From contig DAINRM010000003.1 in the NCBI GenBank assembly GCA_036741875.1, forward strand, positions 6,683 through 70,682: 64,000 bases of DNA, in the 5' to 3' direction. Of this stretch, positions 2,425 to 43,372 are shown in pieces (position 1 is the stretch's first letter; the number at the start of each line of letters is the position of its first letter). The position numbers were made by a program, and so were the translations under genes. Source of the DNA: Patescibacteria group bacterium. Its GTDB lineage: Bacteria > Patescibacteriota > Minisyncoccia > UBA6257 > HR35. Below the pieces are notes generated by a model. That model had not been told where the DNA came from, ran no database searches, and saw nothing but the letters and a program-made list of their open reading frames with translations.

Positions 2425-4065
2425 TTATATTTTTATTTTTTTAAATAAAGGCTCTAAAGAAGTTATTTTTATTTTTTCTGCTTCTCTTAAATTTAAGAGA
2501 TATTTATCTTTTCCTATTTCGTAATTTATTTCTTCAAGTCCCATTCTTTTTCTTATCTCTGAGGAAAAATTTGGTAAAAAGGGATTTAAAAGATAAGTAA
2601 GATTAGAAATTAAAAGAAGGGAGTTGAAAATAATTTTTTTAGCAAATTCTCTTTCTTTTTTCCATGGTTCATTTTTTTCTAAATATTTATTTCCTTCTCT
2701 AACAAGATCTAAAATTAAATTAAATGATTTTGTTTCTTCTCCAAAGAAAATTATTTTTTTAACCTCATCATAAACATTTTTAATTTTTTCTATAATTTCA
2801 TTATCATATTCTTTTTTGTTTATTTCATTTCCAAGTTTTTCTTTATAAAAAGTAAAAACTCTTTGGAAAAAATTTCCTAAATTGTCGTTAAGTTCGTTAT
2901 TTATTTTCTCTTCAAAATCTTTCCATTTAAAATCAGAATCTTTATTTTCTGGGAAGATAGAAATTATGTAAAATCTTACATAGTCAGGACCGTATTTTTC
3001 TCCAAATTCTAAAGAATCAATAATAATACCTCTGCTTTTAGAAAATTTCTGTCCCTCAAGAAAAAGAAAATTGTTTACCCAAGGAAAATAAGGTAAATTG
3101 AAATTCATATGTTGTCCAAGAAGCTGACCGGGCCAAAAAAGAGTATGAAAACTAAGATTGTCCTTACCCATAAAGTAGTAATGAAAACAATTTTCATTTT
3201 GCCAAAACTCTCTAAAATCCCTATTATTTTTATTTGCCCATTCGACTGAAGCAGAAAAATAACCAATAACCGCCTCAAACCAAACATAAAAACGTTTATG
3301 CTTAAAAGATTCTAATTTCATTTCATCAGGAATTTCTTTTTCAGGAATTTCTATGCCCCAATCAAGATCTCTGGTAATAGCTCTGGGTTTTAAACCTTCT
3401 TTAAGCCAGGCAAGTGATTCTTCATAAACCCATTTTCGCCAATGCTTTTGTTCCTTAACATAACTTTCTATAAGAGGTTGAAGTTTAGCATAATCTAAAA
3501 AATAATGCTCTGTTTCTTTTAAGATAACATGTTTTTTAGTTAATTTACTTACAGGATTTATAAGTTCTCCAGGGTTTAAAACTTTTCCGCATTTTTCACA
3601 TTGATCTCCTCTTTGCTCTTCGCCTCCACAAAAAGAACATTTTCCTTCGACATATCTATCTGGTAAAAACCTATTTTCTTCTGGAGAAAAATACTGAAGT
3701 TGCTTAGCTTTAAAAATATAGCCATTTTTTAAAAGTCTTAAAAAAAATTCTTGAGTTATTTTTTTATGGTTTTCTGTAGTTGTAGAGGTAAAAATATCAA
3801 AAGTTAAGTTATAAAGTTTTAAAAGATAATGGATTTTAGGCGTATATTCACTGACAATATCTTCTGGCTTAACACCTCTTTTATCAGCTTCAACAGTAAT
3901 AGGGGTTCCGTGACAATCTGTTCCGGAAACCATAAGAGTTTCATAACCACATAAACGACAAAAGCGAGAAAAAATATCAGCAGGAAGAAGATAACCAGCT
4001 AAATGTCCTATATGCAAATCTCCGTTAACATATGGCCAAGCAGCACCTATAAAAATTTTTTGCAT
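2425..4065 (-). CDS. metG: Methionyl-tRNA synthetase
   Basis: N-terminal PYVNGDLHIGH (HIGH motif), a Zn-knuckle CSFCGGEE...CEKCGK, and KFSKSRG (KMSKS motif). Length 546 aa. Confidence 0.9.
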   Translation of the reverse strand: MQKIFIGAAWPYVNGDLHIGHLAGYLLPADIFSRFCRLCGYETLMVSGTDCHGTPITVEADKRGVKPEDIVSEYTPKIHYLLKLYNLTFDIFTSTTTENHKKITQEFFLRLLKNGYIFKAKQLQYFSPEENRFLPDRYVEGKCSFCGGEEQRGDQCEKCGKVLNPGELINPVSKLTKKHVILKETEHYFLDYAKLQPLIESYVKEQKHWRKWVYEESLAWLKEGLKPRAITRDLDWGIEIPEKEIPDEMKLESFKHKRFYVWFEAVIGYFSASVEWANKNNRDFREFWQNENCFHYYFMGKDNLSFHTLFWPGQLLGQHMNFNLPYFPWVNNFLFLEGQKFSKSRGIIIDSLEFGEKYGPDYVRFYIISIFPENKDSDFKWKDFEEKINNELNDNLGNFFQRVFTFYKEKLGNEINKKEYDNEIIEKIKNVYDEVKKIIFFGEETKSFNLILDLVREGNKYLEKNEPWKKEREFAKKIIFNSLLLISNLTYLLNPFLPNFSSEIRKRMGLEEINYEIGKDKYLLNLREAEKIKITSLEPLFKKIKI

Positions 4066-4083
4066 AAAAATTATTTTACCAAA

Positions 4084-5340
4084 CTAATCAGAAATTCTGT
4101 AAATTTCAGCTCCTACTTTTGTAAGTTTTTCTTCAATTTTTTCGTAACCTCTGTCAATTTTCTCCGCTTCATGAATAATTGTTTCTCCTTGAGCTACAAG
4201 ACCAGCAATAATTAAACTTATTCCTGATCTAATATCTAGGGACTTAACTTCTTTTCCATAAAGAGGTGTGGGACCAATAATAATAGCTCGATGGGGATCT
4301 AAAAGTTCTGTATTCGCACCCATAAGATTTAGTTCGTTCAAATAAGAAAATCTATTTTCATACATCCAATCATGAATTAAAGTAACACCTTCTGCTTGGG
4401 TAGCTAAAACTCCAAAGGGTGGTTGAGCATCAGTGGGAAATTTAGGATGATAACCAACCTGAATTTTTGTTCCTTTGAGTTTAGAAGGTTTAACAATAAT
4501 AGTTTTCTTTTTAATTTCAAAATTAACATTCATTTCTTTAGCTGTCAAAAAAACGGAATCTAAATCTTCTAAAGGAGCGTTTTCAATAGTAAGATGACTT
4601 CGAGTAGCTGAAGCTAAGGCTAAAAAGGTGGCTGTTTCGATGTAATCATAGGGAATTTCAAAAAATATTTCTTTTTTTATATTTTTACTTCGAGAAACAA
4701 TAACAAAATGTGTGCCTAAACCTTTAATCTTATACCCTAATTTTTGAATAAATTTTTCTAAGGAAATAACATGCGGTTCCAAAGCTAAAAGTTTAAGTCT
4801 GACAGGTTTAGGTGAAAAAACGCTTGCCATTAAAACAACTTCACTAGCTGTTACGCTTATCTCTTTCAAAATCACCTCAAAAGACTTAAATTTTTTAAAT
4901 TCACCTTCAATAATTCCATTTTTAATTTCAATTTCTGCTCCTAATGTTTTTAAAGCTTCAAGATGGGTTGTTATAGGCCTTGCTCCAATAATATCTCCAC
5001 CAGGAAGAGATATTTTTACTTTTCCAAAACGAAATAAAAGAGGTGCTAAAAGTAAAATAGAAGCTCTTAATTTAGAAACGAGAGGCGTTAAAAGATCGGT
5101 ATATTCTATATTTTTAGTATTTATGATCACCATTGAATCATCTCTTTCAATTTCTGCACCTAACATTTTTAAAATTTCAAGCATAACTTCAACATCGCTT
5201 ATCTGAGGAACATTTTTTAAGATCACTCTACCTGAAACCAAAAGAGAAGCAGAAATTAATGGAAGAGCAGCATTCTTGGAACCGCTAATTTTGATTTTAC
5301 CTTCAAGTTTTTTTCCTCCTTTTATTAAAAATTTAGCCAT
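4084..5340 (-). CDS. murA: UDP-N-acetylglucosamine 1-carboxyvinyltransferase
   Basis: MAKFLIKGGKKLEGKIKISGSKNAALPLISASLL is a typical MurA N-terminus. 418 aa. Confidence 0.9.
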   Translation of the reverse strand: MAKFLIKGGKKLEGKIKISGSKNAALPLISASLLVSGRVILKNVPQISDVEVMLEILKMLGAEIERDDSMVIINTKNIEYTDLLTPLVSKLRASILLLAPLLFRFGKVKISLPGGDIIGARPITTHLEALKTLGAEIEIKNGIIEGEFKKFKSFEVILKEISVTASEVVLMASVFSPKPVRLKLLALEPHVISLEKFIQKLGYKIKGLGTHFVIVSRSKNIKKEIFFEIPYDYIETATFLALASATRSHLTIENAPLEDLDSVFLTAKEMNVNFEIKKKTIIVKPSKLKGTKIQVGYHPKFPTDAQPPFGVLATQAEGVTLIHDWMYENRFSYLNELNLMGANTELLDPHRAIIIGPTPLYGKEVKSLDIRSGISLIIAGLVAQGETIIHEAEKIDRGYEKIEEKLTKVGAEIYRISD

Positions 5341-5341
5341 T

Positions 5342-6397
5342 TTACTTTAAAGATTTTAAAAAAAGATAAATTAAAAGACCTATTAAAACACCTACAGAAT
5401 TTAAAATCCAAAACCTAACAACAATTTTTGGTTCTTTCATTCCTATGGCTTTAAAATGATTATGGACAGGAGAGGAAAGAAAAATTTTTCTTTTAAAAAT
5501 CTTTTTAGAAAAAACTTGTAAAATTACTGAACCTGATTCTCCTACTAAAGTTATACCTATAAATGGCCAAAGAAGGTAAGTACCAGTAAGAAAAGAAATA
5601 ATAGCTAAAGATGAGCCTACCGAAAAAGAACCATTATTGCCATCAAAAAAAAGAGCTGGATAACTATTAAACCAAAGATAAAGCGTTAAAGAACCTAAAA
5701 GAGCCGCAAGGTATGAGGCTAAATTATATTTTTCTTCTAAAAATGAAACAAAAAGAAAAAATAAAATAATAGAAATAGCTGTGCCAGCAAAAAGTCCATC
5801 TAAACCATCTATTTCGTTAAAAGAAAGGGTTACAGCTAAAAAGATGAAAATAAAGATAAGAAAAAATAAAAAATATTCAATGTAAAATCTAAAATTTACT
5901 AATTCTATAAATTTATAATTAAGCTTTACTAAAAACCACCAAGCAAAAAAAATTCCTAAAGCAGAATAAATTAAAAGTTTTTCCTTAATACCTAATTTGA
6001 TTTTAAATCTTAATCTTCCTAAAATATCATCTAAAAGACCTAAAACACCTCCTAAAAACAAAGCAAAAATTGGAAGGTAAGTTTCTCTTCTTTCTAAAAA
6101 GTTAAGATATTCAAAAAAACCTCCAAATTTTATTTTAAAAAGATAAAAAAAGAGAGCTAATATAATAGGGGGAAGCCAAATAATTATTCCAGCAAGGGTT
6201 GGTATATTTTCCTTTTCTTTTAAAATGGTTGAAGCTATTGGTGCTCTTTTAATTCTTTCTTCATTGGCAAACTTATCACCTAATCTAAATTTAAAAGCTA
6301 ACTTAAGATAAAGAGGAACTAAAAGTAAAGAAAGAATAAAACTCAAAAGAGAATGGGTAATGATTTTAATAATTTGAAAATAAATTTCATAAGTCAT
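5342..6397 (-). CDS. mraY: Phospho-N-acetylmuramoyl-pentapeptide transferase
   Basis: Blocks NEIDGLDGLFAG, LWFNSYPALFFDG, SVILQVFSKKIFKRKIFLSSPVHNHFKAIGMKEPKIVVRFWI align to E. coli MraY (NLTDGLDGLA, LWFNTYPAQVFMGD, SVILQVGSFK...[22 protein letters not shown]). Confidence 0.85.
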   Translation of the reverse strand: MTYEIYFQIIKIITHSLLSFILSLLLVPLYLKLAFKFRLGDKFANEERIKRAPIASTILKEKENIPTLAGIIIWLPPIILALFFYLFKIKFGGFFEYLNFLERRETYLPIFALFLGGVLGLLDDILGRLRFKIKLGIKEKLLIYSALGIFFAWWFLVKLNYKFIELVNFRFYIEYFLFFLIFIFIFLAVTLSFNEIDGLDGLFAGTAISIILFFLFVSFLEEKYNLASYLAALLGSLTLYLWFNSYPALFFDGNNGSFSVGSSLAIISFLTGTYLLWPFIGITLVGESGSVILQVFSKKIFKRKIFLSSPVHNHFKAIGMKEPKIVVRFWILNSVGVLIGLLIYLFLKSLK

Positions 6398-7585: not shown

Positions 7586-7657
7586 AGCCGACGGCGGGAT
7601 TCGAACCCGCGACCCCCGCATTACCAGAGCGGTGCTCTGCCACTGAGCTACGCCGGC
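7586..7657 (-). tRNA. tRNA-Thr (anticodon GGT)
   Basis: Reverse complement gives GCCGGCG TA GCTC AGTGGCA GAGC A CCGCT CTGGTAA TGCGG ... GCGGG TTCGAAT CCCGC CGTCGGC with anticodon loop CTGGTAA. Confidence 0.8.
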
Positions 7658-7667
7658 GATAAATTAA

Positions 7668-7865
7668 TTATAAACTAAAATGGTGTTCTTTTAAAACTTT
7701 TAAAATCATTTCCGTTTCTTCCTCTTTATTTTTTAAAATTTTTTGCCAAAGTTCTTTACATTTTTTGCATTTACCAGCATCTTTTAAATAAAACTTTTTA
7801 ATTCTATATATGCTTCTTCGATCTTGAACTAATTGGCTGAAAAGATTATAAAGATGATTTTCCAT
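7668..7865 (-). CDS. Hypothetical small protein (65 aa)
   Basis: ORF only. Contains a CKKCKE motif. No recognisable family. Confidence 0.3.
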   Translation of the reverse strand: MENHLYNLFSQLVQDRRSIYRIKKFYLKDAGKCKKCKELWQKILKNKEEETEMILKVLKEHHFSL

Positions 7866-7901: not shown

Positions 7902-9542
7902 TTAACCTTTTTCTAAAAATTTTTTTAAACTTTCTGCTCTTTCTTTTACTTTTTCCTCTTCCCCTCTTCGAGCAAACTCGTATTCATTAAAATCTACAAA
8001 CAAATATTTTGAAATTAAAGGATAAATTCTTTTAATGATTCTTGCTTTTTCTTGTTCTACTTTTCTATAATCAGGATGACCTTGAGGAGTAGTTCTTAGT
8101 TCCACTTCCCAGAAAAATTCTCGAAGGTTTTGATACTGGATAAATCTAATTTTATGTAAAAACAAAACTGTATATTGAGAAACAAAGATATTAATTTTAC
8201 TTAATTTTTCATAAAGATTTTCAGAAAGCGAGATAATTTTTTCTGCTTCCTTTTCAAGACCTATTTCTTTATAAAAGTCTGGTATTTCAAAGCCTTCTTC
8301 AATACTAAAAATTTTATTTATGAGAGTTTGCATTCTATGTCTTTGTAAATCTCTCCAAGCTCCTATATTTGTTTTTATTTCAAATTTTAGATAAACAAGT
8401 TCTAAAGCTCTTGGCATTTTTTGCCAGCGATATTTTCTATCTTTTAAAATTTCTTCTAAAACTTCTTCTTTTTCTTGAAGAGAAAGCTTTCTCACTTTAC
8501 TTAAAACAAAATCAAAGGGTTCTTTAACTAAGGGATAAAGAAGACCAGCTAAAATTTTATTTTCACCATCTTCATCGTAGGCTAAAAGCTTTATATTTTC
8601 GTTTAGATCTATTTTTTCTTCTTTCCATTTAATTTTTTCTAAAACCTTAAGTAACCTTAAACTTCTTTCGCCTAAATACTTCTGATAATTTATTGATTCT
8701 TCTTTTTCTATCCTTCTTAAAAAAGCAGGTATAACTTTACTTAGCTCTTCATAAGCTCTTTTACCAGCCCATCTTATTTCTTCTAAGGGGTGAAATAAGG
8801 ATCTATTAATTAAATATTCAAAAGCCTGACCGTTTCCAAAAAAAGAAACTTGACCTAGAGTGGCAAGAGGAAGAATTCTTCTACATTCATCAAAAGTTTT
8901 TGCTTTTAAAACCCTTTCTTTTTCTTCAGGGTATTTTTCTATAAGATAATTAAAGTATTTTTCTTTTGAAGCAATATAAAAATCAAAAATAGCATTCATT
9001 ACTTTTTCATAATCATTTTTTAAACTAGCTTTTTCTACTTCTGGGGGTAAGAAGTAAAGATAATGATTATTTACTTTCTCACCAAAATCTACATATCTTG
9101 TTGATTTTTCTATGGGAGCTATACCAATTCTTTGATTTTCAAAATGTTTAATAGCTATTTGTGAAAGAGATGAAAAAACAAGATGAACACCAGCCATTTG
9201 AGATATGGAATCATCTCCGTACTCAGCTAACCATTTTATATAAAAATCTCGTGCTTTGGGATTAGCAAATAAAATTTCATAACCATAGCTATGAAGAAAA
9301 TCAATAAAATTTTTCCAAGCTCTTCCGTATTCTGATTCTAAAAATGGCTTAACAAATTCATTTAAAAAGACAACTCTTAAATCATCTTTGCTTCTTGAAG
9401 CTCGAGAAGATAAAGCTCCAACAACTTCAGGAGGAAGTAAAACAACTGAATAAACTGATTTATCTAAGTTAGTAAAAAAGGGCTCTAGGTAATATTTTTC
9501 TTCTTCAGTAAATTCAGGTTTTTTAAAAAGAATTTCTTCCAT
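7902..9542 (-). CDS. ThyX-like protein (FAD-dependent thymidylate synthase family), apparent tandem duplication of the ThyX fold in one 546-aa chain
   Basis: N-half contains SRASRS (ThyX ARVS-like), KHFENQRIGIAPIEKSTRY (degenerate RHR...SxRY) and CRRILPLATLGQVSFFGNGQAFEYLINRSLFHPLEEIRWAGKRAYEE (ThyX ARxxLPLAT...NxRSLxHF...EIR block). C-half contains AWRDLQRHRMQT (intact RHR) and NLREFFWEVELRTTPQGHPDYRKVEQE. Confidence 0.55.
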   Translation of the reverse strand: MEEILFKKPEFTEEEKYYLEPFFTNLDKSVYSVVLLPPEVVGALSSRASRSKDDLRVVFLNEFVKPFLESEYGRAWKNFIDFLHSYGYEILFANPKARDFYIKWLAEYGDDSISQMAGVHLVFSSLSQIAIKHFENQRIGIAPIEKSTRYVDFGEKVNNHYLYFLPPEVEKASLKNDYEKVMNAIFDFYIASKEKYFNYLIEKYPEEKERVLKAKTFDECRRILPLATLGQVSFFGNGQAFEYLINRSLFHPLEEIRWAGKRAYEELSKVIPAFLRRIEKEESINYQKYLGERSLRLLKVLEKIKWKEEKIDLNENIKLLAYDEDGENKILAGLLYPLVKEPFDFVLSKVRKLSLQEKEEVLEEILKDRKYRWQKMPRALELVYLKFEIKTNIGAWRDLQRHRMQTLINKIFSIEEGFEIPDFYKEIGLEKEAEKIISLSENLYEKLSKINIFVSQYTVLFLHKIRFIQYQNLREFFWEVELRTTPQGHPDYRKVEQEKARIIKRIYPLISKYLFVDFNEYEFARRGEEEKVKERAESLKKFLEKG

Positions 9543-11310
9543 TTTCTAAAAATCTTTCATAATAAATATACATTATTTTTTTAAATAAAGGAAGAGAAAC
9601 AACTGAACCGTAGGGTACTTCTTCTACAAGTAAAGTAGCACAAAATTCAGGTTTTTCATAGGGACCAAACCCAGAAAAAATAGCATTAAGTTTTTGTTTT
9701 CCTAAAATTTGTGGAGAGCCACTTTTGCCAGCTAAAGAAAAAGGAAGATCATTTAAAATCTTAGCCGTACCTTGAGTCACCGTCATTCTCATACCTTTTC
9801 TCACTATTTCAAAGTTTTCTTGAGAAATTATATTTTCTTTTAAAATTTCTGGAGTTTTTTTAATTATTTTATTTTCTTCTAAAGAAACAATTTTTTTAAC
9901 TAAAAAAGGTTTATAGATTTTACCATAAGCAAAATAACAGTTCCAAAGATTTATTTGAAGAGGAGTTACTAAAAGATCTCCTTGACCTATAGAAACGTTA
10001 TAAGTATCACCGAGTCTCCAAGAAGAAAGATTTTTATTTTGTTCAAGAGGAAGAATACCTCTTTTTTCTCCCAGAAGATCAATACCGCTTTTTTCTCCTA
10101 AACCAAATTTTTTAAAATAAAAATTAATTTTTTCAATACCTAAGCCTTTTCTTATAGGAATTTCTTCAGAAGGATAAGGATAACCTCCACCAACAGCATA
10201 AAAATAAATATTAACAGAATCAGAAATAGCTTTATAGATATCTGTCCAGCCATGAACTTTATTATCTTTAAAAACAGAATAAACTCCAGGAAAATAAGGA
10301 TGAGGAATTTTTAATTCTCCCGAAGAATAAATTTTTGTTTGGGGCGTAACTATTTTTTCTTCAAGAGCAGCTGAAGCTATAATGGTTTTAATAGTTGAAC
10401 CAGGTGAGTAAAGTCCCGAAATGACTCTGTTAAAAAATGGTTTTCGAGGATCATTTAAAATTTTAATAAATTCTTCTTTTCTTTCAAAAAGAGTATTAGG
10501 ATCAAAAGAAGGATAAGAGATAAGAGATAAAACTTCACCATTTTGAGGATCAGTTAAAACAAAAGCACCACTTTTGTATCCATTTTCTTCAAAATAATTT
10601 CTCATTTCTTCATAAACTTTTTCTTGAAAATCTTTGTCTAAAGTAAGATAAATATCTTGACCGGGGAGAGGTTCTTCTTCATAAATTTTTACTAAACCAT
10701 TTTTTGTTTTTTTAAAAACTATTTTTCCTAATTTTCCCTTTAAAATTTCATCATAATAAGCTTCAATACCTTCTTTACCTTCAAATTCTAAACTATTTTT
10801 CTCTGAAAGAGCTACATAACCTAAAACATTACCCCAAGCTTCATTTACGTAATAAACTCTTTTATAACTTGGAATTATAAAAATATGAGGATAGTCTTCT
10901 TTTCTTGACAAAATTTTGTTTACTTTATCTAAATCTAAAAATCTAATAATAATTTCATCTCCCCAATAAAAATAAAGAGGTTTTTCTTCTTTTATAATCT
11001 CTTCTAAAATTTTCTTTTCATGATCTTCTAACTTTTTAAGATGAGCATAAACATCGTAAGTTTTTTTTGAATCGGCTAAAATTTTTCCATTGCGATCATA
11101 AATCTTACCCCTGGGAGGAAAATAGAAAAAAGTTAAATAATTTGATGATTCTAAAATTTCTTTAGCACGATTTTTATAAAAAAATTGAAAATTTAAAAAG
11201 TTAAAAATTGTTAAAAGAAAAACAAACAAAAAGAAAAATATCAAATAAGAAAAATTAAATTTTATCGGAGAAAATATTTTTTTACCTGAAGGAAGAAATA
11301 AATCATCCAT
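9523..11310 (-). CDS. mrdA: Penicillin-binding protein 2 (elongasome transpeptidase)
   Basis: SxxK (SPGSTIKT), SxN (SDSVN) and KSG (GKSGSP) motifs with an N-terminal membrane anchor. Located directly downstream of mreBCD. Confidence 0.8.
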   Translation of the reverse strand: MDDLFLPSGKKIFSPIKFNFSYLIFFFLFVFLLTIFNFLNFQFFYKNRAKEILESSNYLTFFYFPPRGKIYDRNGKILADSKKTYDVYAHLKKLEDHEKKILEEIIKEEKPLYFYWGDEIIIRFLDLDKVNKILSRKEDYPHIFIIPSYKRVYYVNEAWGNVLGYVALSEKNSLEFEGKEGIEAYYDEILKGKLGKIVFKKTKNGLVKIYEEEPLPGQDIYLTLDKDFQEKVYEEMRNYFEENGYKSGAFVLTDPQNGEVLSLISYPSFDPNTLFERKEEFIKILNDPRKPFFNRVISGLYSPGSTIKTIIASAALEEKIVTPQTKIYSSGELKIPHPYFPGVYSVFKDNKVHGWTDIYKAISDSVNIYFYAVGGGYPYPSEEIPIRKGLGIEKINFYFKKFGLGEKSGIDLLGEKRGILPLEQNKNLSSWRLGDTYNVSIGQGDLLVTPLQINLWNCYFAYGKIYKPFLVKKIVSLEENKIIKKTPEILKENIISQENFEIVRKGMRMTVTQGTAKILNDLPFSLAGKSGSPQILGKQKLNAIFSGFGPYEKPEFCATLLVEEVPYGSVVSLPLFKKIMYIYYERFLENGRNSF

Positions 11311-11713: not shown

Positions 11714-12414
11714 TTAAAGAGATAAAAATTTTTACCATCAAAAATACCTTCTAATTTAACTATTAATTTTTCTTCTTTGTTTGTTTTTTTAATTTCATAA
11801 AGACTACCAACCAAAAAGTTAGGAGGAAAGATATTGTCTTGACCATAAGTAAAGATAGGAGAATCTTTTTTTATTTCTCTTGGTGAAGATAAAACAACCT
11901 CTAAAAAACCATCACCATTGGTTTCTCCTATTCCTAAAAACTCACCATTGATATCACTAACATTAAATTCAATTTCTGGATAAAGTAAAGATTTAACTAC
12001 CATAAAGCTTTTATTTTTTTTAAGAACAAAACCTATTAAAGTTAAATTAGAATCAACAATGATATCTCCTTCATTAGCTAAAGGATGAGTTTCAAAATAA
12101 AAATAACCATAAGGATCTCTTTTTAAAAATTCTATTTTTTTAAGATTTTTTAATTCGCTAATTTTTTTATTTTCTTCATCGACAGATTTTAAATTAAGCT
12201 TTATTTGTGAAAGTTCTTGTAAAAGATTAAAATATTTTTCTTGATAAATATCTTCTTTTTTATTTAAAACAAAAATATTTTCCAAAATATCAGTAAAAAT
12301 TTTTTGAATTTTTAAAGAAAATAGTTGGATTTTATTTATTTCTTCAGCAAAAACAAAAGTACTTAAACCAAGAAAAATTAAGGCTATGGTAATATAAATT
12401 AAAAATAATCTCAT
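11710..12414 (-). CDS. mreC: Rod shape-determining protein MreC
   Basis: N-terminal anchor, coiled-coil region, and C-terminal YGQDNIFPPNFLVGSLYEI resembling the conserved MreC G..FP.G.pVG motif. Position after mreB. Confidence 0.65.
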   Translation of the reverse strand: MRLFLIYITIALIFLGLSTFVFAEEINKIQLFSLKIQKIFTDILENIFVLNKKEDIYQEKYFNLLQELSQIKLNLKSVDEENKKISELKNLKKIEFLKRDPYGYFYFETHPLANEGDIIVDSNLTLIGFVLKKNKSFMVVKSLLYPEIEFNVSDINGEFLGIGETNGDGFLEVVLSSPREIKKDSPIFTYGQDNIFPPNFLVGSLYEIKKTNKEEKLIVKLEGIFDGKNFYLFK

Positions 12415-13430
12415 TAGAAAGTAAGTAAGATTTTTTGATAACGACTAAAATCTTCTATTATTTTACCAATTCCTCTAATTACTGAAAACTTTGGTTCTTC
12501 AATTAAATTAACTTTAACTTTTACTTCTTTTTCTAAAAAAGCATCTATCCCTTCAATTAAAGATCCTCCTCCGCCTAAAAAGAGTCCTAAATTACTTATA
12601 TCACCTAAAAGATCGGGAGGGGCAGAATTAATGATATCTTTAAGATGATTGGCTATTTCTAAAAGAGATTCGAAAAGACTTTCGCGAAGGTCTTGAGAAG
12701 TAAAAACTACTTCTTTGGGAAGTCCGGAATAGATATCTCTTCCTTTAACAACGAAACTTGGTGATGTTTTATTATTTATTGAACTTATAGTCATTTTTAT
12801 ATTTTCTGCCTGACTTTCACCAATGATTACCTCATATTTTTCCTTAAGATAATTTATAATATTTTGATTAAATGTCTCTCCACCAATCCTGATACTTTTA
12901 CCTATTACAATTCCACCTAAGGAAATTAAGGCGATATCTGTCGTTCCTCCACCAATATCAACCACCAAAAATCCTTTTGCTTCTTCAATCTCTAAATTAG
13001 CTCCTAAAGCAAAAGCAATTGGTTCTTCAACTAAATAAACTTTTTTAGCCCCAGCACCAATACCTACATCAATAACTCCTCTTTTTTGAACCTCGGTAAG
13101 TCCTAAGGGTACACCAATTAAAAATTTTGTTCCTAAAAGAGCAAAGTATTCTTTTTTAATTTCTTCTAAAAGGTAATTTAAAAAATAAAGAGCTTCATCA
13201 AAATTAGTCACAATTCCATGGGTTAGTGGTTTAATTACTTCTATATTTTCAGGATTTCTTCCCAACATTTTTCTTGCTTCCTCACCGATAGCGACAATTA
13301 AGTTTTGTCTTTTATTAAAAGCGATTACTGTAGGTACTTCTTTTAAAAATCCTTTATCTTTGAGGTAAAGCTTCGTTGAATGAGTTCCTAAATCTACTCC
13401 TAAAAAAATTTCTTTAAGAAATTTAATCAT
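12414..13430 (-). CDS. mreB: MreB/Mbl-like actin homolog
   Basis: KFLKEIFLGVDLGTHSTKLY...DIGGGTTDIALISLGG...LGGGGSLIEGI are actin-fold phosphate/adenosine motifs. Start is taken at the internal ATG (MIKFLKE), which abuts the proS stop. The ORF track begins 20 codons upstream. Confidence 0.8.
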   Translation of the reverse strand: MIKFLKEIFLGVDLGTHSTKLYLKDKGFLKEVPTVIAFNKRQNLIVAIGEEARKMLGRNPENIEVIKPLTHGIVTNFDEALYFLNYLLEEIKKEYFALLGTKFLIGVPLGLTEVQKRGVIDVGIGAGAKKVYLVEEPIAFALGANLEIEEAKGFLVVDIGGGTTDIALISLGGIVIGKSIRIGGETFNQNIINYLKEKYEVIIGESQAENIKMTISSINNKTSPSFVVKGRDIYSGLPKEVVFTSQDLRESLFESLLEIANHLKDIINSAPPDLLGDISNLGLFLGGGGSLIEGIDAFLEKEVKVKVNLIEEPKFSVIRGIGKIIEDFSRYQKILLTF

Positions 13431-13432
13431 TT

Positions 13433-14857
13433 TTAATAACTTTGAGCAAAAAGCCAACGACGTTTTGCTTCTTTTTGGCAATAAATACATTTACCTTTTT
13501 CTTCATTAAATTCAAGAGGTAAACATCTGGTTGTTGCTTTTGTTTCTTCTTTAATCTTAGTTTCACATTCTTCTCTTTCACACCAAAAAGCACTTAAAAA
13601 TCCCCTTTTTTCTTCCATAACTTTTTTAAACTCCTCATAAGAATTAACCTCAAATAAATTTTCCAAAGTGAAATTTCTTGATTTTTCTAAAAGATTAGAA
13701 AGATATTCTTCTTCTAATTTTTTTAAATTTTCTAAAAGATTTTCTAAACTTAAACTTGATTTTTCACGTATGTCTCTTCTAAAAAAAGTAATTTTCTTTT
13801 CTTCTATTTCTTTTTTACCTATTTCTAAACGAAAAGGCGCTCCTTTAAGTTCCCATTTGTTAAATTTAAATCCTGGTGTTTCTTCTGAAATATCATAAAA
13901 AACAGAAATATTTTTTTCTTTTAAAACTTCGATAATTTTTTTAGCGAAAAGATCTATTTTTTCATTATTTTCTCCATCGTAAATAGGTACAATGACAAAT
14001 TCATAAGGAGCTATTTTAGGAGGTAAAATTAGACCATATTCATCTCCGTGAACCATAAAAAGAGCACCTAGTGATCTAGTAGAAAAACCCCAAGAATTTT
14101 GCCAAACATATTTTAAAGACATATCTTTGTCTTGAAATCTAATTTCGAAAGGTATAGAAAAGTTTTGACCCAAATCATGAGAAGTACAACCTTGAAGAGC
14201 TTTTCCATCGGGCATAAGAATTTCATAAGTAAAAGTTTTAAGAGCTCCTGCAAATTTTTCCGATTCTGATTTTTGTCCAGCAAAACCAAAAATACCCAGA
14301 TATTCTTGGTAAACCTTTAAATAAACTTCTAAGGCTTTTAAAACTGTTTTCAAAGAATCTTCATGAGTAGCGTGAGCTCCGTGTCCTTCTTGCCATAAAA
14401 ATTCTGTGTTTCTTAAAAAAGGAAATGGTCTTTTTTCCCAACGAATTACATTACACCATTGATTGATAATTAAAGGAAGGTCTCGATAAGATTTTATCCA
14501 TCTTGAAAAAGCATCATACATAATTGTTTCCGATGTTGGTCTGACAATAAGCTTTTCACTTAACTCTTCACCTCCAGCATAAGTCACTACAGCTACTTCT
14601 GGAGAAAAGCCTTCTAAATGTTCTTTTTCTTTTTTTAAAAACCCCTCAGGAATAAATATAGGAAAATAAGAATTTAAAGCACCAATTTCCTCTTTTATAA
14701 ATTTATCTAAAATTTTTTGAAGATTTTCCCACAAAGCATACCCATAAGGTTTAAAAATAATGGTTCCTTTTACCGGACCATAATCAAAAACTTCTGCTTC
14801 TTTTAAAATTTCTAAATACCATTCAGAAATATTTTCTTTGTTTCTCGGATAAAACAT
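13433..14857 (-). CDS. proS: Prolyl-tRNA synthetase, archaeal/eukaryotic-type
   Basis: 474 aa. Starts MFYPRNKENISEWYLEILKEAEVFDY..., has class II motifs and a C-terminal Zn-binding tail CIYCQKEAKRRWLFAQSY ending in Tyr. Confidence 0.9.
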   Translation of the reverse strand: MFYPRNKENISEWYLEILKEAEVFDYGPVKGTIIFKPYGYALWENLQKILDKFIKEEIGALNSYFPIFIPEGFLKKEKEHLEGFSPEVAVVTYAGGEELSEKLIVRPTSETIMYDAFSRWIKSYRDLPLIINQWCNVIRWEKRPFPFLRNTEFLWQEGHGAHATHEDSLKTVLKALEVYLKVYQEYLGIFGFAGQKSESEKFAGALKTFTYEILMPDGKALQGCTSHDLGQNFSIPFEIRFQDKDMSLKYVWQNSWGFSTRSLGALFMVHGDEYGLILPPKIAPYEFVIVPIYDGENNEKIDLFAKKIIEVLKEKNISVFYDISEETPGFKFNKWELKGAPFRLEIGKKEIEEKKITFFRRDIREKSSLSLENLLENLKKLEEEYLSNLLEKSRNFTLENLFEVNSYEEFKKVMEEKRGFLSAFWCEREECETKIKEETKATTRCLPLEFNEEKGKCIYCQKEAKRRWLFAQSY

Positions 14858-16594: not shown

Positions 16595-17441
16595 AGCTTA
16601 AAATTAAACTTGTAAGTTGAAGGAACCAATTATAATCTTGATCAGTTTCACTGTAAAGATCAAGAAGGTCTTTTATTTCAAAGAGATGTTTTTGATTAAT
16701 TTCTTTTAAAGAAACAGCTTTTTCTATAAGTTCTTTTCTTTTTTTAAGAATTAAAAGCTCAATGATTTCTTTATAAATTTTATTAATTTTTTCGCTAAAA
16801 TCTAAATTTTTTTCTAAGTCAAAATAGTTAAAAACATTTCTTAAAAGCTCTATTTTTTCTAAGGAAGTTGCTTGAAAATAAAAATTTTTATAAAAAGTAA
16901 TTTTTTGCTTATTTTTAATAAGATTATATGCTTTACCTGGTTGATAAGGAAAAAAGGAAAAAGCAAAATCAATGTCTGCTTCTGAAAAATTTTTTTCCTT
17001 AAGAAATTTTAAAGTAAGTTCTTGAGGAACTAAAGAAAATTTAATTTCTAAACTTCGAGATCTTATTGTAGGTAAAATTTTCTTTTTTTGATGGGAAATA
17101 AAAACAAAAAGAGTATCTGAAACTGGTTCTTCAATAGTTTTTAAAAGCACGTTTTGACTTTCTTCTTTAAATTTATGTATTTCATCGATTAGAATAATTC
17201 TTTTATTTTTTGGTTTAGTTAAAGTAATTTTACCTATGAATCTGGCTGAATCGATACTAAAAATTTTTTTATCTGATTTAAAGATTATATATTCCCATTC
17301 ATTTTTTTTGTCTTTTAAAATTTCTTTCACAAAAGAAAATTTTCCTATTCCTTCAGGACCAAAAATTAAAAGAGCTCCTCTTTTTTCTAATAATAACCAT
17401 TCTTTTACTAAGTTTTGTTCTTTTTCATTACCATAAATCAT
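16587..17441 (-). CDS. holB: DNA polymerase III delta-prime subunit-like AAA+ clamp-loader protein
   Basis: LLIFGPEGIGKFSFVKEIL (Walker A-like), IILIDEIHKF (Walker B), TLFVFISHQKKKILPTIRSRS (sensor / SRC-like). Confidence 0.7.
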   Translation of the reverse strand: MIYGNEKEQNLVKEWLLLEKRGALLIFGPEGIGKFSFVKEILKDKKNEWEYIIFKSDKKIFSIDSARFIGKITLTKPKNKRIILIDEIHKFKEESQNVLLKTIEEPVSDTLFVFISHQKKKILPTIRSRSLEIKFSLVPQELTLKFLKEKNFSEADIDFAFSFFPYQPGKAYNLIKNKQKITFYKNFYFQATSLEKIELLRNVFNYFDLEKNLDFSEKINKIYKEIIELLILKKRKELIEKAVSLKEINQKHLFEIKDLLDLYSETDQDYNWFLQLTSLILSYG

Positions 17442-18445
17442 GAAGTTAATCTTTTATAAATATCAATTTTTTCTAAGACCTTACCTGTTCCTCTAGCTAC
17501 AGCAAAAAGAGGATTTTCAGCAATAAAAGTTTTAATAGAAGTTTGTGAAGAAATAAGTTCGTCAATTTTTCTTAAAAGAGCTCCACCACCAGAAAGAACA
17601 ATACCTTTTTCCATAATGTCAGCCACAAGTTCTGGTGGTGTATTGGCTAAAACTCTCTTAATGCCACTGATAATTTCTTTAAGTTCCTTTTGAAGAGCTT
17701 CAGCTACATGAGAAGAAGTTATCTCCACACTTTTAGGAAGTCCGGTTAGATAATCAATGCCATTAACAATCATTTTAAGATCTTCTTGATTTTTATGATT
17801 TTTAAAAGGTAAAGCACTGCCTATTTGGATTTTAATCTGTTCTGCAGTTCTTTCTCCTATAGCTAAATTAAATTTTCTTTTAAGATACTCTCTAATAGCT
17901 TCATCCATTTTATCGCCAGCAATTTTAAGAGATTCAAAAGTCACAATACCACCTAAAGAAATAACAGCTATTTCTGTAGTTCCTCCTCCGATATTGACAA
18001 TCATATTTCCTGAAGGTGTTTGAATAGGCATTTCTGCACCAAGAGCAGCTAAAAGGGGTTCTTTGATAGGATAAACTTCACGAGCACCAGCTTCAAGACC
18101 TGCATCAATGATAGCTTTCTTTTCTGTAGAACTAATACCTGCAGGTACAGAAACAACTAAAGTTGGTTTAAAAAATTTAGTGATTTTGATTTTATTTAAG
18201 AAATATTTTAAAATAGCTAAAGTAGCTTGGTAATCAGCAATAACACCCTCTTTAAGTGGTCTATAAATCTTAATTTCTCTGGGGGTTTTACCGATCATCT
18301 CTTTAGCTTCTCTACCAACAGCAATAATTTTTCTAGATTTTTCATCATAAGCAACAACCGTGGGTTCGCTAATTATCACTCCTTTTTCTGGAAGATAAAC
18401 GTTAGAATTGGCTGTACCCAGGTCAATACCTATTTTAAGAAACAT
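17438..18445 (-). CDS. mreB: Rod shape-determining protein MreB
   Basis: MFLKIGIDLGTANSNVYLPEKGVIISEPTVVAYDEK...NIGGGTTEIAVISLGG...LSGGGALLRKIDELI is canonical MreB. Confidence 0.9.
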   Translation of the reverse strand: MFLKIGIDLGTANSNVYLPEKGVIISEPTVVAYDEKSRKIIAVGREAKEMIGKTPREIKIYRPLKEGVIADYQATLAILKYFLNKIKITKFFKPTLVVSVPAGISSTEKKAIIDAGLEAGAREVYPIKEPLLAALGAEMPIQTPSGNMIVNIGGGTTEIAVISLGGIVTFESLKIAGDKMDEAIREYLKRKFNLAIGERTAEQIKIQIGSALPFKNHKNQEDLKMIVNGIDYLTGLPKSVEITSSHVAEALQKELKEIISGIKRVLANTPPELVADIMEKGIVLSGGGALLRKIDELISSQTSIKTFIAENPLFAVARGTGKVLEKIDIYKRLTS

Positions 18446-36337: not shown

Positions 36338-39300
36338 TTACTCTAGAAATAACATATTTTCTCCGTAAATTTTAAAGAAATAATCCTTATCCTCACATTT
36401 TATAAAGAAATAAACATTTTCTGGCTCTATTATCTCAAACTCATAAATTTTTTGAGGCTCTAAGAAGTAGTTTTCATATTCATCTCGGTAAAATTCATAA
36501 TAGGCAAAATTATATTCGTTTTTGCAAATTTTATCTCCTGTTTCTTTGTATTTTAAATTTAAAATCTTTTCTCCTTCTTCACTTTTAACTTTTATCTTTA
36601 AATCATTAAAACCTTGACCATCATCTCTTTTTTCTATAATTCTCAAATTGATAAGTTGATAACCCTTAGAATTATTTTCAAATGAAATTTTTTTTACTTC
36701 TCCGTTTTCATCTTCAAAAAACTTTATTTCTTTTAAGGGAATTTCGGGGTTATTATTGTATCCTGAAAATTTATAAGATAAAGTCGTTGAGGAGATTTCT
36801 GTTTCTTCTGACTTATAAAGAGAAAGATTAATTACATAATCCAGATTCAAAAAAAGATCACTAGGGCTTAAATCAATTTTAAATGAATTAAAGGTTAACG
36901 GTTTAAATCTTATTTCATCTAGATAAGAATTATTTAAAACATAAAAAAGAGATGTGGTTTCATAATAAGCTGGAGAAAGCCAACTCAAAACAAGTTCAAA
37001 TTGATGATAGGGTTTTTCTTTTGTTTCTTTAATACTATTATCAAAGGAAATTAAGGTATAAGTAGTAGAATCTTTTTTAAGTTCTAAATTGGGTTTATTA
37101 ATAGTTTTAAAAACTTTTTTTACGATCTGAGAATTGTAGGGAACTCCATCAGAAAAAACAAAAGTCTCTCTTATTAAATAGTTATAATCGTCATCAAAAG
37201 CTATATAGCCATTTCCAAGATTTTCTAACTCTTCTTGATTTAAAACTTCTTCATGGCTAATTTTTTTTCTTTCTATCACTTTATTTTCAGGTGGATTTTC
37301 TAAGCAATTAAAATTTTCTACATCACCCCAACATAAATAATCAATTAATTTATCATTATTATCAAAAAGTGCTAAACCATTATCATAAGTTAAACCATAA
37401 ACTGATGATGTAGGATAGATATAATCTGCAGAAATATTAAGGGTATTACATGTTTCCTTATTCACGATTAAAAAATAAGAAAATGGTTGAATAACAGCTT
37501 TAATTTTAGTAGGAGCCACTAGATTTAAATTGCTATAATTTCCATTCCTGGTTATCTTTTTAAGATACCAACCCGAAAGATCTATAGGAAATTCGTTGGG
37601 GTTGTAAAATTCAATAAATTCTCCTTGATTATTATCAACTCCCTTAACTATTTTGACTTTAGAAATAAGTATTTTTCCCTCATTTCTAGCATTTTCAAAG
37701 TTATCTTGTGAATGATCTATTACATGACATTCCGCTATTTGATCTTGAAAACATAAGTTTTTAGGAAATAAAACTTCAGTAGATGTTGAAGCTTGATTTT
37801 CATCATCAATAAGATCTTTAATAAAAACAAAAAACTTTATTGAAGAAGGCAAGCAATTTTCAAAGGGGATTTTAATTAAATAATCTTTAGTAGAAGAGCT
37901 TAAAGAAAAAGTGGAAGTTAGATAATTAAACAAAGAAAGATCGCTTAGGTCTGAAGAGGTTGAAACTTTAATTTCAAAATAATAATTTGATGAAAAATCT
38001 TGATCAGCGTTTAAGGAAAAATTAATTTCCAAGAATTTACCCTCTGATGAAGTTGAAATATTAACATCAAAATTTTGAAAAGTTATTTCACTTAAATCAA
38101 CAAAGTCATTTCGAGGAAGATCGGTAAAGAATGAATTTTTAGGAGAAGGTTGATGAAGCCATAAATCTTTTGAGTTATTATCAGTATCTTGAAAGTTTTT
38201 TCTTTGAATTGATTTATTATCAAAAGATTGAGCTATAAAGGGCGAATTTTCATATTGATAAATTTTTTCAATATTATCTCCATAACCAATTAAATCTGAA
38301 ATTTCTCCATTTGGTTTTCTTAAGATAATAACGTTATTATTAGCGATTGAATAACTTTCTGCATAAGATAAATCTCCTTGATATTTTTCTTTTGTTGATG
38401 AAGAAGTAATAAGGAAATAACTATAAGGTTTTATTTTGCCTTTAAATTTTGAAGAAGGAATAAGAGTTGTTAATTTTGGAGTTGAGTTTGGGTTTTGCCT
38501 TGAGGCATATTTTTCTAAACTCCAGCAAGTTAAATCTATTTCTTCGTTATTAGGGTTATAAAGCTCTATAAATTCATCTTTAGTCTCATCATCAGTTTCA
38601 AATTGAATTTCATTGATAATTATTTTGGGATAGTTTTTATTCTTGTAATCATCACAAAAGTCTTTTTTGCTACTTAAATTTGAAAAACTTCGGCCTCCAC
38701 CATAACTTAAAGTAATAGGCTTATTATTATTATTTTCTTGATTTATATTATTTTGAGAAAGTTCTTTATCAGATGTCTTTTGGGTTGAAGTAGATAAAAT
38801 TTTTGTAGAAGTTGTTAAAATTTTTGAAATTTCATTTAAGACATTTGCTATATTTGAATTTGAATTATCTTGACTTTCTTTGTTTTTACGTTGATTTTTG
38901 GGTTTTTTATAAACCTCGTAAGAATAAAATGTAATGTCTCGATTTGAAGTAATTAAATTTTGATTTAAATCTCGGTTTTGATTTTGATTTTCTAAAGAAG
39001 TTAGCTTTTTGTTTTCTGAAGTTAGGGCTTTATTCGTTTTAACTTCAGTAATGTTTTTGGAAGTAATAATAGCCGGAGTAGAATTAAAATATTTAACTGA
39101 CATAGTCTTAATTGACATTTCTAAAAATCTTTTTTTCATTTCAAGTTCAGCTAATTTCCTTTCTTTTTGTAAAGCAACTTTATCTTTAATACATTCCTTC
39201 TTTTTCTTAATAGGCCAATCATTATCAGTACATTCAGTATAATTTGTTCTAATTTTTGAAAGAGAGCAAGAAAAATCGGTGGAAGGACAATTATAAACAA

Positions 39301-39922
39301 AAATTGTGTCATCTAAAATTTGATCCCATTCTTCACGTTTACTTTGATAATCTTTAAAATATTCTAAATTAGGATTATATCTTCTAATTGCTTTTTCTTC
39401 ATCTTCGTTAATTCCATCATACTTTAATTTTATTGCTGCTGCATAAAGAGAATCTTCTAAATTCCAGGGATTTTTATTTTGAAGTTCTTTATATTGAAGC
39501 CAAGTTGTAGGTTGAAACTGAGTATAGCCAATCCCAAAATCAGGAGAAAATGGAACTTTATTAATATCTAAGCCTAAATTAGAAGTAATTTTTTCTAAAG
39601 TAGAATACTGTTGATGACACCATTGAGTTCGAGCTTCGATGGAATAACAATTTGTACCATTTATAGGTGGTATTAAACTTTTTAAATATTCGCAATACTT
39701 AACACAAGCAGTAATATTTTTATCTTTCGAACCTAAATTTCTACCTAAATCTTTTCCAAATCCACTTTCTTTTTCAATTATTGTCAAAATATAACTTGGT
39801 GTTTTTAATCCCACAATTTTGTATGCCTTATCTATTGCTTCAATAACTCTTTTCCATTCTAAAGCAAAAACTAAACCAATAAATAAAAACAAAAGCAAAA
39901 TAATTGCTTTTGTTTTATTCAT
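36338..39922 (-). CDS. Large (1194 aa) secreted/cell-surface protein: N-terminal MltB-like lytic transglycosylase domain, low-complexity N/S/T-rich linker, and two lamin-tail domains (LTD)
   Basis: Signal peptide MNKTKAIILLLFLFIGLVFA. LT-like block IIEKESGFGKDLG...GIGYTQFQPTTW (compare MltB ES...GAMGQxQFMPSTW). LTD1 KIIINEIQFETDDETKDEFIELYNPNNEEIDLTCWSL. LTD2 KILISKVKIVKGVDNNQGEFIEFYNPNEFPIDLSGWYL. Confidence 0.6.
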   Translation of the reverse strand: MNKTKAIILLLFLFIGLVFALEWKRVIEAIDKAYKIVGLKTPSYILTIIEKESGFGKDLGRNLGSKDKNITACVKYCEYLKSLIPPINGTNCYSIEARTQWCHQQYSTLEKITSNLGLDINKVPFSPDFGIGYTQFQPTTWLQYKELQNKNPWNLEDSLYAAAIKLKYDGINEDEEKAIRRYNPNLEYFKDYQSKREEWDQILDDTIFVYNCPSTDFSCSLSKIRTNYTECTDNDWPIKKKKECIKDKVALQKERKLAELEMKKRFLEMSIKTMSVKYFNSTPAIITSKNITEVKTNKALTSENKKLTSLENQNQNRDLNQNLITSNRDITFYSYEVYKKPKNQRKNKESQDNSNSNIANVLNEISKILTTSTKILSTSTQKTSDKELSQNNINQENNNNKPITLSYGGGRSFSNLSSKKDFCDDYKNKNYPKIIINEIQFETDDETKDEFIELYNPNNEEIDLTCWSLEKYASRQNPNSTPKLTTLIPSSKFKGKIKPYSYFLITSSSTKEKYQGDLSYAESYSIANNNVIILRKPNGEISDLIGYGDNIEKIYQYENSPFIAQSFDNKSIQRKNFQDTDNNSKDLWLHQPSPKNSFFTDLPRNDFVDLSEITFQNFDVNISTSSEGKFLEINFSLNADQDFSSNYYFEIKVSTSSDLSDLSLFNYLTSTFSLSSSTKDYLIKIPFENCLPSSIKFFVFIKDLIDDENQASTSTEVLFPKNLCFQDQIAECHVIDHSQDNFENARNEGKILISKVKIVKGVDNNQGEFIEFYNPNEFPIDLSGWYLKKITRNGNYSNLNLVAPTKIKAVIQPFSYFLIVNKETCNTLNISADYIYPTSSVYGLTYDNGLALFDNNDKLIDYLCWGDVENFNCLENPPENKVIERKKISHEEVLNQEELENLGNGYIAFDDDYNYLIRETFVFSDGVPYNSQIVKKVFKTINKPNLELKKDSTTYTLISFDNSIKETKEKPYHQFELVLSWLSPAYYETTSLFYVLNNSYLDEIRFKPLTFNSFKIDLSPSDLFLNLDYVINLSLYKSEETEISSTTLSYKFSGYNNNPEIPLKEIKFFEDENGEVKKISFENNSKGYQLINLRIIEKRDDGQGFNDLKIKVKSEEGEKILNLKYKETGDKICKNEYNFAYYEFYRDEYENYFLEPQKIYEFEIIEPENVYFFIKCEDKDYFFKIYGENMLFLE

Positions 39923-42637: not shown

Positions 42638-43372
42638 ATGGAAAACAAAGAAATTCAGAGTATTTATTTTGAAATTAGAGCTGGTGTAGGTGGCGAAGAG
42701 GCTTCTCTTTTTGCTCGTGATCTTTGGAGAATGTATAGTAAGTTTTTTGATAGAAGGGGTTGGAAATATAGAATCTTAGATATCTCTGAAAGCGATTTAG
42801 GTGGCATAAAAACTTTAGTAGCGGAGGTTACTGGTGAACGTGTTTATGATCTTTTAAAACAAGAAGCTGGTGTTCATCGAGTTCAAAGAATTCCTATCAC
42901 AGAAAAAAGTGGAAGAATTCATACCTCTACTGCTTCAGTGGCTATTTTACCAAAACTTTCTTTACCTCAAATTCAAATAAAAGAATCTGATATAGAAATA
43001 GAATTTTTTAGATCTGGTGGACCTGGAGGACAAAATGTAAATAAGGTAGAAACTGCTGTAAGAATAAGACATAAACCCACAGGAATTGTTGTTTCTTGTC
43101 AAGTAGAAAGAAGTCAGCAAAGAAATAGAGAAATTGCTATGGAAATGTTAAAAAACAAAATATGGCAAATGGAACAAGAAAAAATTTTAGGAAACTTAAC
43201 AGAAGAAAGAAGAAAACAAATAGGTTCGCAAGAAAGATCTGAAAAAATTAGAACTTACAACTTTCCTCAAAATAGAGTGACTGACCACAGAATAAATAAA
43301 AGCTGGTATGATTTAGACGAAATTATGGAAGGAAAATTAGATAAAATAATTGAAGCTTTCCAAAAAAAGTAA
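42638..43372 (+). CDS. prfA: Class I peptide chain release factor, RF1-like (PxT = PIT, GGQ present), lacking the N-terminal domain 1
   Basis: 244 aa. Aligns to E. coli RF1 from about residue 107 onward: [22 protein letters not shown]; [20 protein letters not shown]; [28 protein letters not shown]; [13 protein letters not shown]. Only 35 nt separate it from rpmE upstream. Confidence 0.75.

Follow-up and report, generated by a model that had tools for sequence, protein, structure and literature searches.

What does a thymidylate synthase of twice the usual length do, and where are its active sites? Canonical ThyX enzymes (T. maritima TM0449, M. tuberculosis Rv2754c, H. pylori, PBCV-1 A674R) are single-domain proteins of about 190-260 aa, whereas the gene considered here, in a 64-kb stretch of patescibacterial DNA (the whole of which is called the window below), encodes 546 aa that form two domains in one chain. 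A reading of the sequence alone had proposed a fused tandem duplication whose halves lost complementary motifs, and had left open whether the product is a functional ThyX or a repurposed dUMP/FAD-binding protein. The results of this work make it quite probable that the protein is a genuine ThyX (FDTS) of an internally duplicated type, whose predicted dimer would be a pseudo-tetramer with two live sites.

A single chain with two ThyX domains

The ORF is single and uninterrupted, begins with ATG and is likewise recorded on the source contig (an ENA metagenome assembly); on translation of the coordinates, the peptide blocks quoted by the sequence-only reading all fall at the expected residues (Table 1). 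The Pfam Thy1 profile (PF02511) matches the whole protein with 89.7 bits, against a gathering score of 24.8, and this threshold is also exceeded by each half taken alone: residues 1-283 score 54.4 bits (E 1.8e-14; residues 100-273 onto profile positions 40-191) and residues 284-546 score 39.3 bits (E 7.9e-10; residues 351-508 onto profile positions 31-190). The two Thy1 domains expected of a duplicated protein are thus both recognised, and the protein belongs to the Thy1 superfamily on the strength of either half. Against the curated ThyX equivalog model, NCBIfam TIGR02170, it scores 32.6 bits, below the cutoff of 87.9, which we read as the mark of a model tuned to single-domain enzymes and not as evidence against function.

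The kinship of the two halves becomes visible at the level of profiles. Direct BLASTP comparison of the N-half with the C-half gave no significant match, and profiles of the halves built from close CPR relatives alone aligned weakly (10.6% probability); those built from alignment A2, which consists of 53 diverse sequences with 27-59% identity to the query, aligned in the expected register over 218 columns with 94.7% probability (hhalign, E 5.8e-8). Because each half passes the Thy1 threshold and the half profiles align in this way, the two halves are products of an ancient internal duplication, and the tandem fusion suspected from the single sequence is confirmed at profile level. The C-half is the closer of the two to canonical ThyX: from residue 307 onwards it covers T. 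maritima ThyX from one end to the other (Tm residues 1-220; 97.4%, E 3.5e-11), whereas the N-half aligns with insertions (36%, E 6.4e-5), one of them of about 45 aa (roughly residues 55-100). The reference sequence used is identical to that of PDB 1KQ4/1O26, and standard Tm residue numbering applies throughout. As to the fold, a phmmer search of PDB sequences with the single protein returned no ThyX match; the family profile matched M. tuberculosis (Mtb) ThyX over residues 177-276 (E 3.6e-4), and the fold matches all lie in the ThyX family.

Table 1. Position of the two-domain thyX gene and its parts in the window, with the evidence for each.
Feature	Position	Strand	Evidence or remark
Whole gene, two-domain ThyX, 546 aa + stop	7902..9542	(-)	ORF list; Pfam Thy1 in two stretches
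Overlap of thyX start with PBP2 (mrdA) stop region, 20 nt	9523..9542	(-)	ORF coordinates; PBP2 Pfam matches; same calls on source contig
N-half ThyX domain, residues 1-283, more diverged copy	8694..9542	(-)	Pfam Thy1 alone; hhalign against TmThyX
SRASRS, residues 46-51	9390..9407	(-)	S49 and R50 invariant or nearly so in the family
YGDDS loop, residues 108-112 = Tm H51-G52-H53-E54-T55	9207..9221	(-)	hhalign; A2 columns
Degenerate RHR of N-half, N136-Q137-R138	9129..9137	(-)	hhalign register; column counts
Intact dUMP loop of N-half, E145-K-S147-T-R149-Y150 = Tm E86, S88, R90, Y91	9093..9110	(-)	Conserved in 52-53/53
DECRRILP, residues 218-225	8868..8891	(-)	Alignment to Mtb ThyX; hhalign; A2 columns
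Inter-domain linker, residues 284-306, two predicted helices	8625..8693	(-)	AF2 H281-291, H293-303
C-half ThyX domain, residues 307-546	7902..8624	(-)	hhalign to Tm residues 1-220; Pfam Thy1 alone
Intact RHR of C-half, R401-H402-R403 = Tm R78-H79-R80	8334..8342	(-)	Conserved in 52-53/53
NLREFFWEVELRTTPQGH, residues 472-489, FAD/dUMP contacts of C-half	8076..8129	(-)	hhalign; A2 columns; translation

Division of the active-site motifs between the halves

Catalytic and substrate-binding residues were mapped by laying the hhalign register on the A2 columns, and the counts that follow are out of 53 sequences. At the N-terminal end, the SRASRS block may correspond to the T. maritima helix R25-A-A-R28-V-S30, going by an alignment made by eye. 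In the YGDDS loop G109 and S112 (= T55) are invariant (53/53 each), and the place of Tm His53, which stacks on folate/flavin, is taken by D110 (D in 48 sequences, H in 5); its equivalent in the C-half is Pro or Met. The first two residues of the RHR motif, Tm R78 and H79, correspond to N136 and Q137 in the N-half, both variable, and to R401 and H402 in the C-half, both invariant (53/53 each); the third, Tm R80, is kept in either half (R138 and R403, each in 52/53). The reverse is seen in the dUMP loop, where E145, S147, R149 and Y150 are found in 52, 53, 53 and 52 sequences, respectively, and the equivalents of all of them are variable in the C-half. The AF2 pLDDT is low at residues 143-149, as expected of a mobile substrate loop. 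Further along the N-half, D218 (= Tm E144) is invariant (53/53) and R221, the equivalent of the Tm R147 that contacts the dUMP phosphate, is R in 51 sequences and K in 2; the C-half mostly has Gln there. In the C-half, R397-D398 (= Tm R74-Q75) stand just ahead of the RHR, the SxRY positions downstream of it are variable, and the equivalents of Tm N163, R165, R174 and H178 are N472 (48/53), R474 (50/53), R483 (53/53) and H489 (51/53). Their N-half counterparts are looser: N237 (N in 34, S in 13), Q239 (R in 29, Q in 23), R247 (K in 26, R in 18) and H251 (S in 21, H in 19).

The N-half has thus lost the first two RHR residues and keeps the ExSxRY loop and the R147 equivalent, and the C-half has lost the SxRY loop and R147 and keeps RHR along with the equivalents of R165, R174 and H178. 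The signature of one-domain ThyX, RHRxxSxxxxSxR(Y), is complete in neither half (NQR...ExSxRY in the first, RHR without SxRY in the second), and R78, H79, R80, S88, R90, Y91, R147, R165, R174 and H178 are all present once the halves are taken together. This is no peculiarity of one sequence. Among 328 full-length two-domain members of the family, 321 carry ExSxR[YF] in the N-half and none carries it in the C-half, 316 carry RHR in the C-half and 15 in the N-half, and 295/328, the protein of the window included, are strictly complementary (N-half ExSxRY, C-half RHR). Both parts of what had been proposed here from the single sequence, i.e., ThyX hallmark blocks in either half and their complementary loss, therefore stand: the former by Pfam on each half and by the residue mapping, the latter as a property of the whole family, seen in the A2 columns and in this census alike.

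The exceptions are instructive as to how the split could have come about. Twelve cases of RHR in the N-half were inspected, and 11 of them belong to a Ferrimicrobium-type cluster, whose N-half carries RHRLLSFLEQSTRY, the complete canonical ThyX motif with the exact T. maritima spacing, and whose C-half has RHR only. In the twelfth (P0157), the RHR comes after the loop, at a position that is not homologous. The Ferrimicrobium-type form looks like a less degenerate intermediate, and as such it supports duplication followed by progressive complementary loss.

Function and predicted assembly

Gene neighbourhoods bear on what the combined residues are for. In a comparison of 80 loci from GTDB species genomes, with neighbour identities confirmed with Pfam, a gene of the dTMP pathway lies within 6 kb in 14/80, often in tight operons. 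The order is dcd ... tmk-dut-thyX2 ... glyA in a MAG labelled uncultured Gammaproteobacteria, with 52% identity to the query (L002), dcd ... tmk-dut-thyX2-glyA in Levybacteria (L033), dcd-thyX2-glyA in Saccharibacteria (L015), glyA-thyX2-dcd in a Micrarchaeia archaeon (L022) and dut-thyX2 in Calothrix (L024); a FolC-like Mur ligase adjoins the gene in a MAG named 'bacterium' (L004), in another Saccharibacteria locus (L005) and in Iainarchaeum (L055). The products of dcd and dut supply dUMP, that of glyA regenerates CH2-H4folate and that of tmk phosphorylates dTMP. Because relatives sit in dcd-tmk-dut-thyX-glyA operons, genuine dTMP synthesis is indicated, and of the two possibilities that the sequence-only reading had left side by side, functional enzyme or repurposed protein, these operons favour the first. 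The association is seen in the relatives and not in the window itself, where tblastn and Pfam scans of the 64 kb found none of thyA, tdk, folA, glyA, dut or a second thyX. The window does encode Fmt, a folate-dependent enzyme, which implies that the organism uses folates.

It is unlikely, in our view, that the protein is a ThyX-like enzyme turned to another substrate or product (e.g., in the manner of a PolB-like UMP/dCMP C5-methylase) or to another one-carbon carrier. The equivalents of the dUMP contacts S88, R90, Y91, R147, R174 and R78 are all invariant somewhere in the protein, and its conserved neighbours dcd, dut, glyA and tmk are those of the dTMP pathway. PolB itself (the UMP/dUMP C5-methylase of polyoxin biosynthesis, PDB 4P5A) is a single-domain protein from an antibiotic gene cluster, whereas the present family is tied to dTMP-pathway genes, and no secondary-metabolite context was found in the 64-kb window. 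Canonical ThyX structures also outscore PolB, which ranks below four ThyX enzymes in the fold matches, placing the protein outside the PolB type. In most Chloroflexi, namely those other than Dehalococcoides, the duplicated ThyX is moreover reported to be the sole thymidylate synthase (Valas & Bourne 2009, PMC3224940). The two-domain ThyX is probably the only thymidylate route in many reduced-genome CPR and DPANN organisms, Chloroflexi and some cyanobacteria and actinobacteria.

The likeness to canonical ThyX extends to the Pfam family, to the fold of both halves, to the catalytic residues once the halves are combined, and to the dut, dcd, tmk and glyA neighbours of the relatives; the canonical enzyme has His53, whereas the protein of the window has no equivalent of it and falls, in addition, below the TIGR02170 cutoff. 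In both, the active site is composed from different ThyX domains. In the Mtb and H. pylori enzymes each site is built from three subunits (PMC6514825; PMC3498832), where subunit A brings RHR and R199 (= Tm R174), subunit B brings S71 and R190 (= Tm T55 and R165) and subunit C brings the S105/R107/Y108 loop (= Tm S88/R90/Y91) (PMC6514825). Canonical ThyX has RHRxxSxxxxSxRY in one domain and forms a homotetramer with four sites, whereas the present protein, with SxRY in its N-half and RHR in its C-half, is predicted to form a dimer with two live ones. Two copies, with two N-domains and two C-domains between them, would make a pseudo-tetramer in which an interface of the A-C type would pair one C-half with one N-half, since pairing of like with like would leave one invariant motif useless, and since the loop is found in N-halves only and RHR and R174 are constrained in C-halves only. 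This would give two complete sites, each with the RHR side from a C-half and the SxRY side from an N-half, and two reciprocal sites that are degenerate. At each live site FAD and dUMP would bind, CH2-H4folate would give the methylene and NADPH would act as reductant, as in single-domain ThyX. The pseudo-dimer with motif subsets split between halves, as first proposed, is in this way half observed: the split is plain from the A2 columns and the 328 members, and the assembly is what we infer from it.

Each half still has residues that serve the third ('B') subunit role, S112 in the first and R378 and R474 in the second, and because of this conservation the 'dead' pseudo-sites may not be entirely inert. 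One could speculate that they turned into binding sites for a second ligand, be it NADPH, a second flavin or a regulatory nucleotide, because R138, K132, S112, R/Q239 and K/R247 are kept there whilst the substrate loop is lost; we give this idea a low probability. If true, it would provide a separate reductant or allosteric site that single-domain ThyX does not have.

The same residues could be taken to mean that all four pseudo-sites are competent, with non-canonical residues standing in for the missing ones. The N-half does keep R138 (= R80), K132 (= R74) and S112 (= T55), it partly keeps R/Q239 (= R165) and K/R247 (= R174), and a few lineages retain its full RHR. Even so, four competent sites are very unlikely: the census has no C-half with ExSxRY among its 328 and the aligned positions are variable, so a site relying on the C-half loop would be without Ser88, Arg90 and Tyr91, and positions 136/137 of the N-half are unconstrained. 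It is more improbable still that the N-half is a mere structural scaffold, a pseudo-enzyme domain that leaves catalysis to the C-halves alone. The far greater closeness of the C-half to canonical ThyX and the large insertions in the N-half would fit such a role, but the C-half has neither the substrate loop nor R147, which the N-half keeps across phyla, with S147 and R149 in 53/53, a pattern that one would not look for in a scaffold. An artefact, i.e., two adjacent thyX genes misjoined or a chimeric contig, has nothing but the unusual length to speak for it, and is refuted by the single unbroken ORF, by identical protein calls on three contigs and by thousands of same-length homologs in independent assemblies from many phyla.

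With the split dimer as the preferred reading, the two-domain ThyX offers a clean natural case in which domains that had been duplicated and fused then lost complementary parts of a composite active site. The sites seem to have gone from four, symmetric, to two, asymmetric, and an intermediate of the Ferrimicrobium type survives. A structure of this form would show which ThyX interface turned intramolecular, and could help with the old question of how NADPH and folate are accommodated in ThyX.

Distribution, precedents and gene neighbourhood

The sequence-only reading had named, as something that would refute it, a two-domain architecture that is already described and common, and this is how matters stand: the two-domain ThyX is widespread, is already named ThyX in databases and was noted in print in 2009. 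The exact protein and others 85-91% identical to it are present in NCBI, JGI and ENA, one close match being named 'FAD-dependent thymidylate synthase [Candidatus Pacebacteria bacterium]'. When 1.84 billion cluster representatives were searched exhaustively, 2805 matched, with 388 clusters (at 50% identity) at E<1e-30; the best 150 of the 2805 are nearly all 500-600 aa long and match over their full length, down to 29% identity. In a GTDB scan with one genome per species, at least 600 species have relatives. Full-length ones occur among the bacteria in Patescibacteria, Chloroflexota (including Chloroflexus), Cyanobacteria (Westiellopsis, Calothrix), Acidimicrobiia and other Actinomycetota, Acidobacteriota, Binatia, Nitrospirae, Gemmatimonadales, Dormibacterota and SAR324, and among the DPANN archaea in Woesearchaeota, Micrarchaeota and Iainarchaeum. 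Twenty distant representatives looked up by name included Ferrimicrobium, Myxococcota and Patescibacteria and no Chlamydia. A large family is missed by the curated ThyX equivalog model, which is of consequence for annotation.

[quoted passage not shown] It has the same architecture and belongs to the same family as the protein of the window: Chloroflexota proteins (Chloroflexus, Roseiflexaceae and others; L027, L029, L031, L032, L034, L038) match residues ~5-541 with 31-35% identity, and that of Chloroflexus (L038), which matches residues 7-541 with 33% identity, is itself a two-domain ThyX. What this work defines beyond the earlier remark is which half keeps which motif. The literature searched gave no description of the split active site and no biochemical study of a verified member of the two-domain family, and the PDB holds no structure of one. 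A lead in this respect is the ThyX of C. trachomatis (CT632), a candidate member of double length at ~529 aa. That enzyme was validated biochemically by an NADPH oxidase assay (PMC3498832), its product is THF according to the passage of PMC12584634 that cites Griffin et al. 2005, and it was too divergent for the original ThyX phylogeny (PMC6171736).

Finally, the gene stands among cell-wall genes, the order in the window being ProRS-MreB-MreC-MreD-PBP2-thyX-(65-aa ORF)-tRNA-Thr-KH protein-DacA-like peptidase-GT4-MurA-MetRS. The 370-bp gap downstream of thyX, considered as a place for a regulatory RNA, holds the tRNA-Thr and the small ORF only, and this candidate was rejected. On the upstream side the PBP2 gene (9523..11310) is overlapped at its end by thyX, and the 20 nt of overlap first noted agree with the ORF coordinates. 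The placement inside a cell-wall cluster was thus correctly seen, and it is incidental: the order mreBCD-PBP2-thyX-KH-dac-GT4-murA-metS is shared with Bacterium HR35 only, the closest GTDB relative among the matches listed (71% identity), and with 0/79 of the other loci. A functional link between thyX and the cell-wall genes was rejected on this ground, and the position of thyX beside PBP2 and mreBCD comes from how closely genes are packed in this lineage and is no property of the family.

Curated-model coverage and motif content of two-domain ThyX

Against TIGR02170, the curated ThyX equivalog of NCBIfam, the window ThyX scores 32.6 bits versus a cutoff of 87.9, and the large, widespread two-domain family to which it belongs therefore escapes the model; annotation pipelines that depend on it would miss this family. 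In one of its lineages, represented by P0259 and the other members of its cluster (Ferrimicrobium sp., MCI2975729.1), the N-half retains the full canonical ThyX motif RHRLLSFLEQSTRY at residues ~119-132, and the C-half carries RHR besides this complete motif. The lineage looks like an evolutionary intermediate towards the complementary motif loss of the two-domain family.

A separate observation concerns the cyanobacterium Westiellopsis prolifica, in whose locus (L017) three clustered dCTP-deaminase/dUTPase-like paralogues, at 3632-5691, lie directly upstream of the two-domain thyX.

The region 3′ of thyX

Most of what looks like a 370-bp ‘intergenic’ gap behind thyX is taken up by a tRNA-Thr gene. 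The 65-aa ORF next to thyX (MENHLYNLFSQLVQDRR...) is probably a real small protein; it is without a match in the Pfam scan, its gene call is also present on the source contig, and a counterpart with 75% identity occupies the same position in the closest GTDB relative, Bacterium HR35 (locus L001, 7678-7866).

Features of the window, in window coordinates
Feature	Position	Strand	Location or content
tRNA-Thr(GGT)	7586-7657	-	between 65-aa ORF and KH-domain gene
65-aa ORF	7668-7865	-	directly downstream of thyX
MreB/Mbl paralogue	12414-13490	-	
MreB/Mbl paralogue	17438-18445	-	
SLT/Lamin Tail Domain protein	36338-39922	-	1194 aa
Peptide chain release factor ORF	42638-43372	+	
Type IV pilin-like protein	46389-46955	-	N_methyl motif
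Second SLT_2 protein	48260-49660	+	
Glycogen-metabolism cluster	49607-55287	-	GDE_C-type debranching enzyme, GH57, GT1/GT5 glycosyltransferase, glycogen synthase
T4SS pilin/TrbC-like protein	58025-58678	-	

Other genes in the window

The two MreB/Mbl paralogues (Pfam, 350 and 428 bits) are less than 5 kb apart; one heads the mreBCD-PBP2 cluster and the other adjoins a DNA polymerase III delta′-like gene. The 1194-aa protein combines an SLT-type lytic transglycosylase domain at its N-terminus with two Lamin Tail Domains; it may belong to the large proteins, common among CPR bacteria, that sit at the cell surface or act on the cell wall. The T4SS pilin/TrbC-like and type IV pilin-like genes both represent surface-appendage functions typical of CPR bacteria with an episymbiotic lifestyle.

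In the release factor ORF the PCRF profile match starts only at position 98, and the N-terminal part must lie in a different frame upstream or have been truncated by the ORF caller; a prfB-type programmed frameshift may be present here. The glycogen synthase of the glycogen-metabolism cluster is of the eukaryote/archaeal type (PF05693, 428 bits).
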